Notes under the pieces: model-generated
The model's input: the letters and a program-made list of their open reading frames with translations, nothing else
Database searches by the model: none
Told to the model about the DNA's origin: nothing
Translations under genes and position numbers: made by a program
Origin: a virus
Lineage: Duplodnaviria > Heunggongvirae > Uroviricota > Caudoviricetes
Strand: one strand, 5' to 3'
Virus record (IMG/VR): IMGVR_UViG_2703718815_000007
Length of the DNA stretch: 4,992 nt
Shown: positions 1 to 3,769 of the stretch, one piece after another
Position numbering within the stretch: the first letter of the stretch is position 1
How the letters are laid out: each line of letters begins with the position of its first letter

Positions 1-94
1 AATAGCGGATTTTTATAAATTAGTGTTTTTTGCTGTTTCATAATGTGCCACGTTGTTCATTATGTTTTTGATTTTTAAGTTCATTGCAATTTTT

Positions 95-114
95 CTTGTT
101 CCAGCTTGTTCCAC
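95..114. repeat. 10-bp tandem direct repeat CTTGTTCCAG / CTTGTTCCAC (9/10 identical)
   Basis: Read directly from sequence; contains TTGTTCCA, the reverse complement of TGGAACAA found twice downstream of int. Confidence 0.7.
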
Positions 115-138
115 GTTGTACCCCCTTGTGCAATGATC

Positions 139-162
139 GGTGTAGTTAATGGTGTAGTTAAT
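139..162. repeat. perfect 12-bp tandem direct repeat GGTGTAGTTAAT x2 abutting the int start codon
   Basis: 139-150 and 151-162 are identical. Position suggests an operator or arm-type site, but function is not shown. Confidence 0.75.
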
Positions 163-163
163 T

Positions 164-1414
164 GTGATGACCGGATTCAAAATTATGAGCAGAGCACTTA
201 ACAAACTGAGCGATACACAGCTAAGAAAAATCAACGGCACACCAGCCCCAAAAACCACATTTCTTAATGACGGTGGAAACCTGAGCGTCAGGCATTCCAC
301 CAGCGGCCTGTTAACCTGGTATTTCACCTACAGGGCAGGAGCTGGACGCCAGGTATCACCGGAACGCCTGAAGCTGGGAAATTATCCTGATCTGAGCCTG
401 AAAGCAGCCAGGGAAAAAGCGGCACAGTGTCGCGCATGGCTGGCAGAAGGAAAAAATCCACGCCATGAGCTTAATTACTCCATACAGGAAGCACTAAAGC
501 CGGTAACGGTGGGCGATGCGATCAGCTACTGGCTGGAAATGCACGTAAAGGAAAACCGTGTCGATTACGTATGCCTGAAAAGCCGCCTTAATAATCACGT
601 CATACAGCATATTGGCAATATGCCACTGGATAAATGCGAGTTACGTCACTGGCTGGCCTGTTTTGACCGGATACGCAAAAAATCCCCCGTAACATCTGGC
701 CACATGATGCAGGCGTGTAAACAGGCGCTTAAGTTCTGCCGTAAACGTCGCTACGCAGTCAGTAACGTTCTGGATGATCTCAACGTGGTGGACGTTGGCA
801 AAAAGCCGGGCATAAGCGAACGCGTGCTAAGTAACAAAGAACTGGGCGAATTATTACAGGCACTGGATAAAAAAATATTCCCGCCCTACTACAGCGCGCT
901 AATCCGCCTCCTGATTGTGTTCGGCTGCCGAACCGGAGAACTGAGATTGTCGGAGATCAGGGAGTGGGATTTTAAGGAAATGCTCTGGACAGTACCGAAG
1001 GAGCACAGCAAAACGAAGGTCGCCATATTCAGGCCAATACCGGAAAGTATTTTACCGTTCGTCACACAGCTGGTGGAGCAGAACCGACACACAGGGCTAT
1101 TACTCGGGGAACTGAAACAGGAAGCCAGCGTGTCGCAATACGGCAGATTCACACACAAAAAATTAAACCATCCTCACTGGTCACTACACGATATACGGCG
1201 CACGTTTACCACGATGCTGAACGATTTAGGCGTGGATCCACATATTGTCGAGCAACTTACCGCCCACCAGATGCCAGGGATGCAGCGAGTCTATAACCAC
1301 TCCCGTTATCTCGATGCGAAACGTAATGCGCTGGACATGTGGACAGAGCGGTTAGAGATACTGGCGGGTACTCACGAAAACGTAACCACACTGCCAATAG
1401 CCAGAGAAATATAA
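164..1414 (+). CDS. int: tyrosine site-specific integrase, P4-type (N-terminal arm-binding domain plus catalytic domain)
   Basis: 416-aa ORF. N-terminus LSDTQLRK...DGGNLSV...GNYPDLSLKAAREKA matches the P4-family arm-binding pattern (LTDxxIRK...DGGGLYL...G.YP.VSLAEAR). Catalytic motifs present: GCRTGELRLSEI (TGxRxxE box), HDIRRT (HxxR), RVYNHSRYLDAKRNALDMW (YN..Y nucleophile region). No strong SD before any start; in-frame ATGs at 164, 167 and 185. ATG 185 (MSRALNKLSDTQ) gives the more typical spacing before the LSD motif, so the true start may be 185. Confidence 0.92.
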   Translation: MMTGFKIMSRALNKLSDTQLRKINGTPAPKTTFLNDGGNLSVRHSTSGLLTWYFTYRAGAGRQVSPERLKLGNYPDLSLKAAREKAAQCRAWLAEGKNPRHELNYSIQEALKPVTVGDAISYWLEMHVKENRVDYVCLKSRLNNHVIQHIGNMPLDKCELRHWLACFDRIRKKSPVTSGHMMQACKQALKFCRKRRYAVSNVLDDLNVVDVGKKPGISERVLSNKELGELLQALDKKIFPPYYSALIRLLIVFGCRTGELRLSEIREWDFKEMLWTVPKEHSKTKVAIFRPIPESILPFVTQLVEQNRHTGLLLGELKQEASVSQYGRFTHKKLNHPHWSLHDIRRTFTTMLNDLGVDPHIVEQLTAHQMPGMQRVYNHSRYLDAKRNALDMWTERLEILAGTHENVTTLPIAREI

Positions 1415-1437
1415 TTTTTTTCGTGATTTTTCAGAAC

Positions 1438-1544
1438 GGACACAACGTGGAACAACGAGACACAACGACGAACAACGGCAAACAATCTGGAACAAATCTG
1501 ATTATCTATGATTATTTCTGATTAACTCCCTATAAGTCTGATTT
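1438..1544. repeat. helically phased short-repeat array (10/20-bp periodicity) just downstream of int
   Basis: Two 20-bp units, 1438-1457 GGACACAACGTGGAACAACG and 1458-1477 AGACACAACGACGAACAACG (17/20). TGGAACAA at 1448-1455 and 1488-1495. TCTGATT at 1497, 1517, 1537 (exact 20-bp spacing) plus TATGATTA at 1507. Candidate protein-binding array; function is inference. Confidence 0.6.
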
Positions 1545-1600
1545 TCTGGTGGTTTACTGTTTTTTTGTACATTGGCGAATCAATCTTAAAAATATGTAAA

Positions 1601-1630
1601 AAAGGCGTAAATGCAGAATTTTACGCCTTT
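1601..1630. terminator. intergenic hairpin, bidirectional terminator-like (better U-tract on the minus strand)
   Basis: 11-bp stem AAAGGCGTAAA (1601-1611) with TTTACGCCTTT (1620-1630), 8-nt loop. Plus strand followed by TTTGTATCC (weak U-tract); minus strand followed by TTTTTTACATATTTTT (strong U-tract). Confidence 0.5.
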
Positions 1631-1699
1631 GTATCCAAATGAATCAAAATAGTTTTTTTCTAATTGCGCCTATTTCAGCGACGAACACCACATCACTGT

Positions 1700-1790
1700 T
1701 TGCCATTCCATAAACACCCTGACACAATCCGACACAACCCAACCCAATAACCCACCCAATGACTCTTTAAGAAACAACAAAGGGGGAATT
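1700..1790 (+). promoter_or_regulatory. alpA upstream region: CA-rich tract with GACACAA direct repeats, possible weak promoter, strong SD
   Basis: GACACAATCC/GACACAACCC at 1721-1740 (10-bp spacing), CCCAAT x2 at 1743-1748 and 1755-1760. Possible TTGCCA (1700-1705)-17-CACAAT (1723-1728), which is weak. SD AAGGGGG at 1780-1786, 4 nt before GTG 1791. Confidence 0.3.
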
Positions 1791-1979
1791 GTGTTAAGCA
1801 CAGATCGCTTTATACGTGAAAAAGAATGTCAGCAACTTACAGGCCTGAGCCGTTCATGTCGGTACCGCCTGGAAAAAACCGGACAATTCCCATCACGGCG
1901 TAAGCTCGGCGGTCGTTCCGTTGGCTGGTCTTTATCCGAAGTTCTGGCATGGAAGGAAAGCTGCGAGGCAGTTCACTAA
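1791..1979 (+). CDS. alpA: AlpA/Vis-family small HTH regulator (prophage transcriptional regulator / excisionase-like)
   Basis: 62-aa ORF with GTG start and strong SD. Sequence ...CQQLTGLSRSCRYRLEKTGQFPSRRKLGGRSVGWSLSEVLAWKES fits the AlpA-family pattern (HTH followed by ...G.RSVGW...EV..W). Placement immediately after a P4-type int is typical. Family call is by recollection, not search. Confidence 0.8.
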   Translation: MLSTDRFIREKECQQLTGLSRSCRYRLEKTGQFPSRRKLGGRSVGWSLSEVLAWKESCEAVH

Positions 1980-1984
1980 TCAGG

Positions 1985-2005
1985 CTGGCGGCACACAGCC
2001 GCCAC
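1985..2005 (+). other. GC-rich stem-loop immediately after the alpA stop, without a U-tract
   Basis: 7-bp stem TGGCGGC (1986-1992) with GCCGCCA (1998-2004), loop ACACA. No T-run on either side, so not a canonical intrinsic terminator. Confidence 0.4.
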
Positions 2006-2031: not shown

Positions 2032-3312
2032 ATGAATACTGGATATTCTCCCGAACAAGGGCGGGGCTTCGTTCGTCCTGAAAAACAGAATCTGCAAAAT
2101 TTTGCCGAAATTATTCCGGTTATTTCCGGCCTTACTGGCGGGAGTGAAACCAATATTGTTAACGCCAGAGCGTTGCAGATGTTTGATGATAAAAAGGGAG
2201 TAAATTTAACTTACACCCCTGACGGCAATCAGAATATGAGCATTATCTCTGAGTCAGGTTTCTACAAACTAATAAAAACAAAAAGCGCCCCGTTGCCGGA
2301 GCGCCTTTGTGAACAATTAACCTACTGCGCAAAAAATGAATCTGAGCAGTGGGATTATATCAACCGTGTGGTGAAGCGCCACTATTGCCGGATAACAGGC
2401 AAAACAAAGGCGACCGCAAAAGGGTCGCCAGTGGGAACAAGGGAAAACAAAAGCATCACCAACAATGCCACATTTGCGGCTGGTGGGCAATGTGATCAGT
2501 CAGATTTGGTTCGTTCCAAGGTTTGCAACGAGAGTTTTTTCCTGCGCTCTTTAAGGAATTTCTCAAGAGCAAACGAACAAGGTGCGAATCTTTCTGATTC
2601 ATGCTCTATCTTTCTGCGCCGTCTTTTCCGTGTCGGTGATAATGTTTTGGTCAATTCTTTATCGGTCATTGTGTTGTCCTGCATAGCAATGCGCCGTAAT
2701 ACCTTACACCACGGCGCTGGTGATGGTTATTCCTGCTCTTTGGCCTTGCGACGCTGGCGGTATTCAACTTCTCGCTTTAATGCTGCTGTTACAAACTGCC
2801 CTGTACTTTCACCAGGCATTTTTACCGCCTCAACATTGTTCATAACTTCATGCGGAACCCTTGCCGCAACTGTTTGTGATTTTGCGTTTACTGCTTTTGT
2901 TGCCATGTTGTGTACCCCTTACAAAAAACAAATGCAGTATGCAGGAAAAAAAATAAGTGTTCAACACTTGACGTGTTTAACACCAGGGCTTAAATTGGTG
3001 TTCAACACCTTACTGATGCAAGGTGCAGAAACGACGAAACCCGGCAGTGCGCTAACACTAACCGGGCTTCTAACCACCAACGATAGAAAGCGTATCGAGG
3101 TAGCTATGAGAAATTATACCAGACACCCGCAAGGGCGGGACTCGTACAACCTGAATAAATACATCTGGCGTTTTATCGCCCTGAGCACGGCACAACCGCG
3201 CGTGATTACCATTGAGGCCACCAGCGAACAGGAAGCGCGTCAGCAATCTCCTGATGGCTGCGTGATGGTATTCGCTGCCCGTATTCGTCAGGGGGTACGC
3301 CATGTGCAATAA
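2032..3312 (+). CDS. uncertain 426-codon open frame, probably not a single gene; the first ~130 codons look protein-like, the middle looks like antisense read-through, the last 68 codons are the separate Icd/Kil-like ORF
   Basis: Seen: no stop in this frame from 2032 to 3312. Codons ~135-290 are Cys/Ser/Leu/Arg/Phe-rich, and this frame is wobble-aligned antisense to two minus-strand ORFs with their own RBS, promoter and terminators. The segment MSIISESGFYKLIKTKSAP resembles the Bro-N/antirepressor ISE.GLY.LI..S motif, but that is a weak by-eye resemblance. Two minus-oriented terminator hairpins lie inside it. Confidence 0.25.
   Translation: MNTGYSPEQGRGFVRPEKQNLQNFAEIIPVISGLTGGSETNIVNARALQMFDDKKGVNLTYTPDGNQNMSIISESGFYKLIKTKSAPLPERLCEQLTYCAKNESEQWDYINRVVKRHYCRITGKTKATAKGSPVGTRENKSITNNATFAAGGQCDQSDLVRSKVCNESFFLRSLRNFSRANEQGANLSDSCSIFLRRLFRVGDNVLVNSLSVIVLSCIAMRRNTLHHGAGDGYSCSLALRRWRYSTSRFNAAVTNCPVLSPGIFTASTLFITSCGTLAATVCDFAFTAFVAMLCTPYKKQMQYAGKKISVQHLTCLTPGLKLVFNTLLMQGAETTKPGSALTLTGLLTTNDRKRIEVAMRNYTRHPQGRDSYNLNKYIWRFIALSTAQPRVITIEATSEQEARQQSPDGCVMVFAARIRQGVRHVQ
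2271..2304 (-). terminator. candidate intrinsic terminator for leftward transcription (distal of two)
   Basis: GC-rich imperfect stem 2285-2292 with 2297-2304 (7 of 8 pairs), loop TTGC. On the minus strand it is followed by TTTTTGTTTTTATT (complement of 2271-2284). On the plus strand it is followed only by CTTTGTG. Confidence 0.4.
2401..2429 (-). terminator. candidate intrinsic terminator for the leftward RHH cassette (proximal)
   Basis: Perfect 7-bp stem GGCGACC (2409-2415) with GGTCGCC (2423-2429), 7-nt loop. On the minus strand it is followed by TTTGTTTT (complement of 2401-2408). It lies 66 nt beyond the stop of the 62-aa minus ORF. Confidence 0.55.
2496..2684 (-). CDS. small highly basic protein of unknown function, second gene of the leftward cassette
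   Basis: 62-aa ORF MQDNTMTDKELTKTLSPTRKRRRRKIEHESERFAPCSFALEKFLKERRKKLSLQTLERTKSD. The internal ATG at 2669 has AGGA 7 nt upstream, so the product is probably 57 aa. Protein-like K/E/R-rich composition, same strand as and just downstream of the RHH gene, followed by a terminator. No family recognised. Confidence 0.4.
   Translation of the reverse strand: MQDNTMTDKELTKTLSPTRKRRRRKIEHESERFAPCSFALEKFLKERRKKLSLQTLERTKSD
2727..2906 (-). CDS. Arc/MetJ-like ribbon-helix-helix DNA-binding protein, candidate repressor of the switch region
   Basis: 59-aa ORF, hand-translated (below the track's length cutoff): MATKAVNAKSQTVAARVPHEVMNNVEAVKMPGESTGQFVTAALKREVEYRQRRKAKEQE. Fits RHH layout: beta-strand (VAARVPHEV), helix A, G-x-S/T turn (PGESTG), helix B (QFVTAALKREVE), basic tail. 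SD AAGGGG 8 nt upstream of the ATG. Fold assignment is by eye. Confidence 0.6.
   Translation of the reverse strand: MATKAVNAKSQTVAARVPHEVMNNVEAVKMPGESTGQFVTAALKREVEYRQRRKAKEQE
2936..2964 (-). promoter_or_regulatory. candidate sigma70 promoter for the leftward RHH cassette
   Basis: On the minus strand: TTGAAC (complement of 2959-2964, inside operator site 1), 17-bp spacer, CATACT (complement of 2936-2941). This gives a leader of about 23 nt carrying the AAGGGG SD. Confidence 0.35.
2955..3009. promoter_or_regulatory. operator array: three palindromes sharing the core GTGTT-N-AACAC
   Basis: Site 1 at 2955-2969 AAGTGTT-C-AACACTT (7-bp arms); site 2 at 2973-2983 GTGTT-T-AACAC; site 3 at 2997-3009 GGTGTT-C-AACACC (6-bp arms). 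The sites overlap both candidate promoters. Confidence 0.65.
2968..2996 (+). promoter_or_regulatory. candidate sigma70 promoter for the rightward icd-like/replication operon
   Basis: TTGACG (2968-2973), 17-bp spacer, TAAATT (2991-2996). Operator site 2 sits in the spacer and site 3 at the predicted start. The 5' UTR would be about 100 nt to ATG 3106. Confidence 0.4.
3106..3312 (+). CDS. small protein, first gene of the rightward operon; possibly Icd/Kil-like (positional analogue of P4 kil)
   Basis: 68 aa: MRNYTRHPQGRDSYNLNKYIWRFIALSTAQPRVITIEATSEQEARQQSPDGCVMVFAARIRQGVRHVQ. SD GAGG 5 nt upstream. The in-frame ATG at 3016 has no SD and lies about 13 nt from the predicted start, so it is disfavoured. 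The Icd-like label is from memory of annotations in P4-like prophages and is low-certainty. Confidence 0.5.
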   Translation: MRNYTRHPQGRDSYNLNKYIWRFIALSTAQPRVITIEATSEQEARQQSPDGCVMVFAARIRQGVRHVQ

Positions 3313-3769
3313 CACCCGTCCGGACGCAGCCGCCGAAGCCATCAAAACGCTGATGCACGCGCTGATTGATATTTCTGTTATCGCAGACAAGGCGCATAAG
3401 CACGCCACCAGCGAAACAGAATATGCCGGGGCTTTCGTTCCTCACTCACTGGCTGTTATGCAATTTAGTGCTGATATGGCACTGAATGAGGCCAGGGCTA
3501 TCCTGATTGCTGATTGTGAAAATGGGGGGGGGGTTATGCGTGATGATCGTTTTAATGCCCTGAAACAGGAATTTTATGGCGCACCGGATGATACAGGCGA
3601 TGCGTTGCTGGTTGTTAATGACCTGATAAAGGCCGCATGTTTTTTAATTGGAACCGCTGAACATTCAGGAACCGGCAACGATATTCTTATTATTGCGTCG
3701 GATTATGCTGAATATGTGGCAGAGGCGCGTTACAGAAGAAAATTCCCGGAGAATGTAAGCCATGTGTGA
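3302..3769 (+). CDS. hypothetical protein (155 aa), translationally coupled to the upstream ORF; contains an in-frame G10 tract
   Basis: ATG 3302 overlaps the upstream stop (3310-3312). Strong SD AGGGGG at 3290-3295, 6 nt upstream. Protein-like composition. No family recognised. Confidence 0.65.
   Translation: MCNNTRPDAAAEAIKTLMHALIDISVIADKAHKHATSETEYAGAFVPHSLAVMQFSADMALNEARAILIADCENGGGVMRDDRFNALKQEFYGAPDDTGDALLVVNDLIKAACFLIGTAEHSGTGNDILIIASDYAEYVAEARYRRKFPENVSHV
3524..3533 (+). repeat. homopolymeric G10 tract inside the 155-aa ORF (encodes GGG)
   Basis: Ten consecutive G read directly. G9 or G11 would give a stop within about 10 codons. Confidence 0.9.

Follow-up and report, generated by a model that had tools for sequence, protein, structure and literature searches.

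The stretch of DNA analysed here (the window: 4,992 nucleotides of IMG/VR virus record IMGVR_UViG_2703718815_000007, Caudoviricetes) is, to judge from its sequence, the left end of an integrated phage-inducible chromosomal island (PICI), a satellite of the EcCICFT073 kind, and starts at the left attachment site, attL. Its open reading frames (ORFs) specify a P4-type integrase (int), a 62-aa AlpA protein, a DUF4222 protein and then a RepA-like helicase. In E. coli the relatives are islands of 10-15 kb with capsid and small-terminase genes, that is, capsid-forming PICIs (cf-PICIs); their gene content runs through int, alpA, an Icd-like gene, DUF4222, primase/helicase, capsid and terS. Among the relatives is the island of CFT073, with an Int 87% and an AlpA 97% identical. 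The window itself is a mosaic, identical to none of the loci fetched, and it ends before the right attachment arm. The right arm was therefore read in relatives, with the locus L004 as proxy (common attB; 98.3% identity over window positions 1-2000).

Two families of short repeats accompany int and alpA (Table 1). The units of the first, A, follow the consensus TTGT(T/G)(C/T)C and recur at 10-bp phase; the second, B, is a doubled 12-mer (GGTGTAGTTAAT, twice). The argument developed below is that B is probably an arm-type site for the integrase, and that the A units can with reasonable likelihood be taken as operators of AlpA, a winged-helix excisionase and activator.

Table 1. Features at the left end of the island, in window coordinates
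Feature	Position	Strand	Remarks
attL identity block / crossover core	1..10	.	AATAGCGGAT
Putative element-side core-type Int site	11..25	+	TTTTATAAATTAGTG
Core-proximal A pair	43..62	+	ATGTGCCACG TTGTTCATTA
Int-proximal att-arm A array, 4 units spaced at exactly 10 bp	96..135	+	TTGTTCCAGC TTGTTCCACG TTGTACCCCC TTGTGCAATG
B, doubled 12-mer, probable Int arm-type sites	139..162	+	GGTGTAGTTAAT x2; period 12, 93% match
int, P4-type tyrosine integrase, 409 aa from ATG185	185..1414	+	in-frame GTG at 164
A array of 6 units spaced at exactly 10 bp, opposite in orientation to those of the att arms	1436..1495	-	
Predicted sigma-70 promoter of alpA	1700..1728	+	TTGCCA, 17 nt, TG-n-CACAAT; prediction
Two promoter-proximal A units, 10 bp apart	1721..1737	-	GACACAA x2; over predicted -10 and start site
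alpA, 62-aa winged-helix excisionase-type regulator, proposed A-unit binder	1791..1979	+	Pfam Phage_AlpA (PF05930) 2.7e-18

The integrase matches the Pfam families Arm-DNA-bind_3 (PF13356, 3e-18) and Phage_integrase (PF00589, 1.8e-16), and in RefSeq relatives its start is annotated at the equivalent of ATG185. The AlphaFold model of AlpA (pLDDT 89.9) consists of a winged helix only; the closest solved folds are the GIsul2 excisionase (8c3t; template-modelling scores 0.79/0.85), RdfS and TorI. AlpA, as modelled, is an excisionase-type winged helix.

REPEATS AROUND INT

The original prediction drew attention to a perfect 14-bp inverted repeat that brackets int, and to shorter copies of the same motif on both flanks. 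On re-reading of the sequence all of its coordinates proved exact: TTGTTCCACGTTGT (106-119) pairs fully (100% complementary) with ACAACGTGGAACAA (1442-1455), its reverse complement, and further copies lie at 48-58 (CCACGTTGTTC), 96-103 (TTGTTCCA), 1448-1455 and 1488-1495 (TGGAACAA), and 1439-1447 and 1459-1467 (GACACAACG). The distance of about 45 bp given for the left copy holds to the GTG at 164; to ATG185 it is 66 bp. The right copy begins 28 bp 3' of the stop codon (1412-1414), again as predicted.

The repeats are real and far above chance. When up to three mismatches are allowed, the 14-mer has 9 matches in the window where 0.63 are expected, and all 9 fall within 43-129 on the plus strand or 1442-1495 on the minus strand. 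There are 7 same-strand pairs of TTGT[TG][TC][CG] at a spacing of exactly 10 bp, where 500 dinucleotide shuffles gave 0.012 (at most 1). With Tandem Repeats Finder, a period of 10 is detected at 95-129 and one of 10/20 at 1435-1495.

Three things had been overlooked: the strict 10-bp register of the four units before int and the six after it; the two further A units that overlap the predicted -10 of alpA; and the B family as a whole. The register is exact for the 4, 6 and 2 units of the window, and for the 3 units of the right arm in relatives. Each arm of the inverted repeat is held within a longer array, the left within the 4-unit array and the right within the 6-unit array, so that the 14-bp repeat is the shared two-unit segment (TTGTTCCACG plus TTGT) of two oppositely oriented A arrays. 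It is exact in the type represented by the window and L004 and in the CFT073 type; in most relatives the sequences of the copies differ at 1-2 nt.

Conservation follows the units. Across 48 distinct int-alpA spacers the unit cores of the 6-unit array (AACAA/ACAAC) are conserved, the spacers between units are variable, and the predicted -35 of alpA is invariant. Phased equivalents of the promoter-proximal pair persist in diverged relatives, for example GGGAACAATA CGACACAATA AGACACC in L041. The array after int was found in every relative examined that carries an AlpA of the window's type (type 1, defined below); relatives with a type-2 AlpA and a homologous int have no array directly after int.

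Directly after the 6-unit array, at 1497-1547, lies a second family phased at 10 bp, (T/A)CTGATTA in three to four copies, which is poorly conserved in relatives; type-2 elements carry AATATC repeats at a comparable place.

ATTACHMENT CORE AND ARMS

In L004 the only direct repeat that joins the left junction to the right end is AATAGCGGAT, at 13001 (attL) and 27866 (attR). The same 10-mer opens the window; positions 1-10 are therefore the attL core, and 11-163 the int-proximal arm. A comparison with the empty site fixes the junctions of a second island, L001, which is placed between mcaS/abgR and smrA: its core, AATATCGTGA (12001-12010), is single-copy in the empty abgR-smrA site of K-12. The identity block is thus common to attL and attR in L004 and, for L001, to the empty site as well. 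The CFT073 core is GGACATATTT, between roxA and phoQ. The first element-specific sequence (11-25) is kept beside three different cores, and together with sequence of the right end it makes up an imperfect inverted repeat that surrounds the core, as in CFT073 (TGATAAAA-GGACATA-TTTTATCA); it may be the element-side core-type site of Int.

Integrases 99.5-99.8% identical were met at two chromosomal sites with different cores, AATAGCGGAT by a major facilitator superfamily (MFS) transporter gene beside ygaZ and AATATCGTGA between abgR/mcaS and smrA, which suggests relaxed or dual target choice.

The suggestion that the motif might recur at the far end of the element is borne out in relatives. At the right end of five of them (L001, L004, L005, L006 and L007) a 3-unit TTGT array is followed by the doubled 12-mer, co-oriented with the left-arm module (4-unit array, then GGTGTAGTTAAT twice); within an arm module B stands about 10 bp beyond the A array. 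A sites thus lie in both arms: in the left arm as the core-proximal pair and the 4-unit array, in the right arm as the array of these five loci. At the position of the core-proximal pair, type-2 relatives have GTGTTCG twice. B occurs solely at the left and right arms (about 90 loci), and its centre keeps its distance from the core (+142 to +147 and -85 to -90) in five att specificities.

The region accordingly shows features of a P4-type attP: an adjoining Arm-DNA-bind_3 integrase, a shared core, and co-oriented doubled repeats at fixed distance, those of the right arm as read in relatives. The cluster upstream of int belongs to an att arm, as the original prediction had offered as one of its options, and this part of the reading is well supported; the description of att arms and arrays together merits high confidence.

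COVARIATION OF REPEATS AND PROTEINS

About 100 loci were sorted by DNA motif and by two protein signatures, the beta-strand segment of Int that follows DGG and the recognition helix of AlpA; a third Int clade, with ten loci, was looked at separately. A scan of genome contigs with Int brought in one Shigella locus only, and no added diversity.

B follows the integrase. The segment NLSVRHSTSGLL goes with the B variant GTGTAGT(T/C)AAT (all 34 motifs detected), NLSVKYLTSGKL with GTGTAGTCACT (all 10 motifs detected), and GLEIKHSKGGKL with GTGTGGTCAGT (L007 and all nine of the L100-L109 loci that have a left flank), irrespective of AlpA type. The A unit follows AlpA. Type-1 proteins, with the helix LSR(S/T)CRYR, go with arm units TTGTTCC, TTGTGTC or TTGTTTC and never with TTGTTCG; type-2 proteins, with the helix VCRTTRYE, go with TTGTTCG, irrespective of Int signature. 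The sample thus holds three contrasts: twice Int changed with AlpA constant, and once AlpA changed with the Int strand constant. Each of the three fits B as the Int arm site and A as the AlpA site.

The contexts of the repeats point the same way. Type-2 alpA genes have phased GTTCG/CGAAC units alongside in three different contexts. In whole elements of 10-15 kb, runs of at least three phased TTGT units are found only in the arms, 3' of int, and upstream of the HK97-type capsid operon (L004 and L007). The A motif therefore appears at att, in the int-alpA spacer, over the -10 of the predicted alpA promoter (PalpA) and before the capsid operon, where the promoter is likewise a prediction. The original prediction had named Int and/or AlpA as binders of the motif: the AlpA half of that proposal gains from the tracking of AlpA type by the A units, and the Int half loses, as these units do not track the Int arm domain.

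The capsid-operon array, of three units, is identical in two cf-PICI relatives (TTGTTCGTGG TTGTTCCAGG TTGTTCGGTG; L004 20581-20610, L007 element coordinates 7790-7819), in the gap upstream of the HK97-type capsid/portal/terminase operon. This site is a candidate for a late promoter dependent on AlpA. An accessory ORF stands between int and alpA in the third Int clade, and in L100-L108 a terminator-like hairpin 7-40 bp upstream of alpA carries two GTTCG units 10 bp apart; in L101 this unit pair is flipped (CGAAC twice).

A word-indexed search for AlpA homologues returned 19 proteins, among which the distant contexts L110 and L112 show the layout of phased units plus doubled motif. L110, with the AlpA helix ICRTTRFL and another Int signature, has TTCG-type phased units and GGTGTAGTCAT twice, which adds some support. 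Layout of this kind cannot prove which protein binds which repeat.

PROPOSED OPERATORS FOR ALPA AND PROBABLE ARM SITES FOR INT

From the positions, phasing, conservation and covariation of the repeats we infer which protein binds which motif, and with what regulatory outcome. The B 12-mers would offer the N-terminal domain of the P4-type Int a pair of half-sites in each arm, four in all, as in P4. In the manner of other recombination directionality factors, AlpA would assemble head-to-tail on the A direct repeats, one helical turn apart, in both arms; by bending the arms it would allow Int to assemble the excisive complex. At the 6-unit array 3' of int and at the 2-unit promoter site, AlpA would exert feedback control of its own promoter. 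The B pair stands 23-46 bp before ATG185, so that occupancy by Int could also autoregulate int. Autoregulation of int by Int is reportedly a feature of P4 and KplE1.

What is published on EcCICFT073 accords in part. AlpA activates PalpA (positive autoregulation) and is required for induction of the island; overexpression of alpA yields excised circles in an int-dependent way; and AlpA is without effect on a reporter for the int promoter, Pint (PMC6092414). Features expected of a directionality-factor array are present too: a small winged-helix protein, repeats phased at 10 bp, and a location in the att arm.

Several observations weigh against assigning the A units to AlpA. The assignment rests on comparative genomics. 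Among the sampled clades the A unit changes only once, between type-1 and type-2 AlpA, so that the link amounts to one main evolutionary contrast with contextual support, and that step may also have brought changes in other linked genes. A cleaner contrast would be a type-1 alpA with an unrelated integrase, and none was found: an exact look-up of the AlpA protein gave ten contexts, all with one integrase, at abgR, and a search of E. coli DNA with alpA alone turned up no type-1 gene next to any other integrase. The Pint region carries an A array, yet in EcCICFT073 AlpA left the Pint reporter unchanged (PMC6092414). A sites lie in both arms, whereas the sites of directionality factors classically lie in one. 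The promoter-proximal units overlap the predicted -10 and start, a position that usually means repression, and AlpA is reported to activate. The 6-unit array is about 200 bp upstream of the predicted alpA -35. Finally, the orientation of an array relative to the gene downstream of it differs, being minus for alpA and plus for the capsid operon. With these points counted, we still lean towards A units as AlpA operators.

A bolder proposal, very tentative and doubtful as a whole, would make the arrays a single AlpA switch that couples excision, the locking-on of alpA, and packaging, with an extra role for the 6-unit array. Arrays on both att arms would license excision, those at the alpA promoter would lock the switch on, and the one before the capsid operon of the cf-PICI relatives would turn on packaging. 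The inverted 6-unit array could pair with the left-arm array and so loop out int; alternatively, it could drive an AlpA-dependent leftward transcript by way of TATATT at 1405-1410 (minus strand), which would oppose int expression after excision of the island.

ALTERNATIVE EXPLANATIONS

The simpler reading of AlpA operators and Int arm sites has three rivals. The first supposes that Int itself uses the TTGT arrays as arm-type sites, with or without the doubled 12-mer, and that through the copy 3' of int it controls alpA or the int transcript. Short direct repeats in both arms are typical of arm-type sites, and the arrays answer to this description; P4 has extra arm repeats at and inside int; and the N-terminal residues 1-28 of Int also vary between the clades that differ in A unit. 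The covariation tells on the other side. Twice the arm domain of Int changes (clades I vs I', and II vs III) and the A unit stays as it is, and it is the doubled 12-mer that changes at exactly those two steps; conversely, elements with TTGTTCC arms and elements with TTGTTCG arms share one beta-strand segment, NLSVRHSTSGLL. An array upstream of the capsid operon is hard to explain for an integrase, and its position at a putative late promoter fits a transcription factor better. Moreover, the arm repeats of P4, CP4-57 and HE-PICIs are doubled 12-mers (PMC10111431). We regard integrase binding of the arrays as unlikely.

A second possibility is that the arrays belong to another factor inherited along with the int-alpA zone, be it a second island protein or a host nucleoid protein, and that AlpA acts elsewhere. 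The assignment to AlpA is indirect, after all, and the int-alpA spacer holds more repeat families than A (TGATTA in three to four copies at 1497-1547, AATATC in type-2 elements), so that more than one binder acts there. A host factor, however, would not switch its motif with AlpA type, and a strict consensus for integration host factor (IHF) is absent from both arms. As for a second island protein, alpA is the only DNA-binding gene that invariably adjoins the arrays; the genes after alpA vary among loci that share them. Binding by a factor other than AlpA we consider distinctly improbable, more so than binding by Int.

The third rival, also raised by the original prediction, has the 14-bp repeat delimit an int cassette that moves or is exchanged on its own, and is hardly credible: the repeat is perfect and closely brackets int, both CFT073 copies have the same C-to-T variant, and the right-arm B motif and the int stop are each followed by a T-rich string resembling GCGATTTTT, but each copy is internal to a longer phased array, most relatives do not keep the copies identical, there is no target duplication outside the arms (CCAGC left, CGAGA right), homologous int genes of type-2 relatives lack the array after int, and int, its arm and alpA are always collinear. 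Nor are the defining features of an inverted-repeat-bounded mobile module, of the kind of an insertion sequence or a miniature inverted-repeat transposable element, found here.

COMPARISON WITH KNOWN SYSTEMS

The nearest well-described layout is the attP-int region of P4, with the arm repeats of Pierson and Kahn, which likewise joins an Arm-DNA-bind_3 integrase to an AlpA-family excisionase (Vis, also a regulator). Its entries annotated 'attP arm sequence repeat' are two tandem 12-mers on each side of the core: in P4 as in the window family, co-oriented doubled 12-bp repeats flank the core, at about -76/+134 in the former and -87/+145 in the latter, and the downstream pair abuts the start of int. 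The repeat itself differs (TGGGGGCAYAWW in P4, GGTGTAGTTAAT in the window), as does the place of the excisionase gene: vis is far from int, whereas alpA of the window directly follows int and is co-directional with it. A scan of P4 for phased arrays found no TTGT arrays with 10-bp phase next to the arm repeats, only three CCACTTAAAG units. These are annotated as ori type 2 repeats, and we take them to be P2 Cox boxes. The alignment with P4 that the original prediction had called for therefore gives a divided answer: the doubled arm repeats are homologous in architecture, and the TTGT arrays are not. CP4-57 is similar, with TAGGCCCATTGA TAGGCCCAACGA before intA (a doubled TAGGCCCA motif) and no TTGT arrays.

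HE-PICIs are a satellite class with an int-alpA integration zone and, like the window, a co-oriented doubled 12-bp motif (PMC10111431). Their attP carries the doubled TGTATTGC motif (tgTGTATTGCa x2; 12 bp) at -81 and +132 from the attP centre, for which the authors proposed the arm domains of Int, or AlpA, as binder; they called the motif unique to HE-PICIs and described no flanking phased arrays there (PMC10111431). By comparison, islands of the EcCICFT073 type carry a variant of the doubled motif whose covariation favours Int, and in addition a repeat family linked to AlpA. EcCICFT073 itself, the prototype Gram-negative PICI, has arrays at places matching those of the window family and differs in integrating at roxA|phoQ with the core GGACATATTT (PMC6092414).

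For the A arrays the parallels lie with recombination directionality factors. According to PMC7498355, the sites of these factors are characteristically direct repeats spaced by one turn of the helix, and Apl has sites at att as well as at promoters; that source and PMC11963761 have Apl of 186, Cox of P2 and Vis of P4 regulating promoters. Apl, Cox, TorI, lambda Xis and RdfS of integrative and conjugative elements (ICEs) resemble the proposed AlpA system in being small DNA-binding proteins with helical-turn repeats and sites at both att and promoters (predicted promoters in the case of AlpA), an arrangement by which a single protein would couple excision to transcription; the AlpA model superposes on RdfS and TorI. 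The differences are that these dual-purpose factors have their sites in one arm, against both in the window family, and that Apl and Cox repress, whereas AlpA of EcCICFT073 is reported to activate its own promoter. The AlpA-type antiterminator of Pseudomonas aeruginosa was considered and set aside. That protein has helices H1-H8, contacts DNA through residues 128-142, places an N-terminal segment in the RNA exit channel and recognizes a single GGGACG element between -35 and -10 (PMC9371919); the protein of the window has 62 aa and a winged helix only.

In Gram-negative PICIs AlpA is the master activator. The literature searched reports no DNA target for it, and allows for a role as excisionase, activator or both. 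Nor is a binding site of AlpA or Int reported there for EcCICFT073, and neither the motif string nor AlpA sites mapped in PICIs gave a relevant result when searched for. The operator proposed here is TTGT(T/G)(C/T)C at 10-bp phase for type-1 AlpA and GTTCG for type-2. Against that literature three points are apparently new: a proposed consensus for a PICI AlpA operator, the occurrence of this motif in both arms and at promoters, and the extension of the doubled P4-type arm motif to the EcCICFT073 family, together with covarying residues of Int. The beta-strand residues of Int become residue-level candidates for arm-site specificity, and the placement of the operator (both arms, the alpA promoter, the capsid operon) makes the questions about AlpA directly testable. 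The region is a control region of an ordinary kind whose sequence had not been spelled out previously; the general picture of integrative elements is unchanged by it.

OTHER FEATURES OF THE WINDOW

In the spacer between int and alpA a perfect hairpin with an 11-bp stem (AAAGGCGTAAA-N8-TTTACGCCTTT, 1601-1630) is kept among relatives. Its T-run is on the minus strand; it is not an obvious terminator for int, and looks like one for leftward transcription, with no leftward gene evident in the spacer. Terminator and promoter scans gave nothing decisive for Pint, and Rfam found no family over the flanks of int.

Beyond alpA, a sub-threshold Rfam match to the SymR antitoxin RNA (3033-3105, minus strand; 32.8 bits against a gathering score of 61, E = 0.002) is placed between a YlcI/YnfO-like gene and an Icd-like gene, a zone for which PICI immunity RNAs have been proposed (PMC10111431). 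The ORF of 426 aa at 2032-3312 overlaps oppositely oriented annotated genes of relatives (YlcI/YnfO family, Icd-like), has a weak Bro-N match at its start only, and is probably not one real gene. A run of ten G (3524-3533) lies within an ORF of 155 aa (3302-3769) in place of which relatives have two shorter ones; the run may be prone to slippage or reflect an error of assembly.

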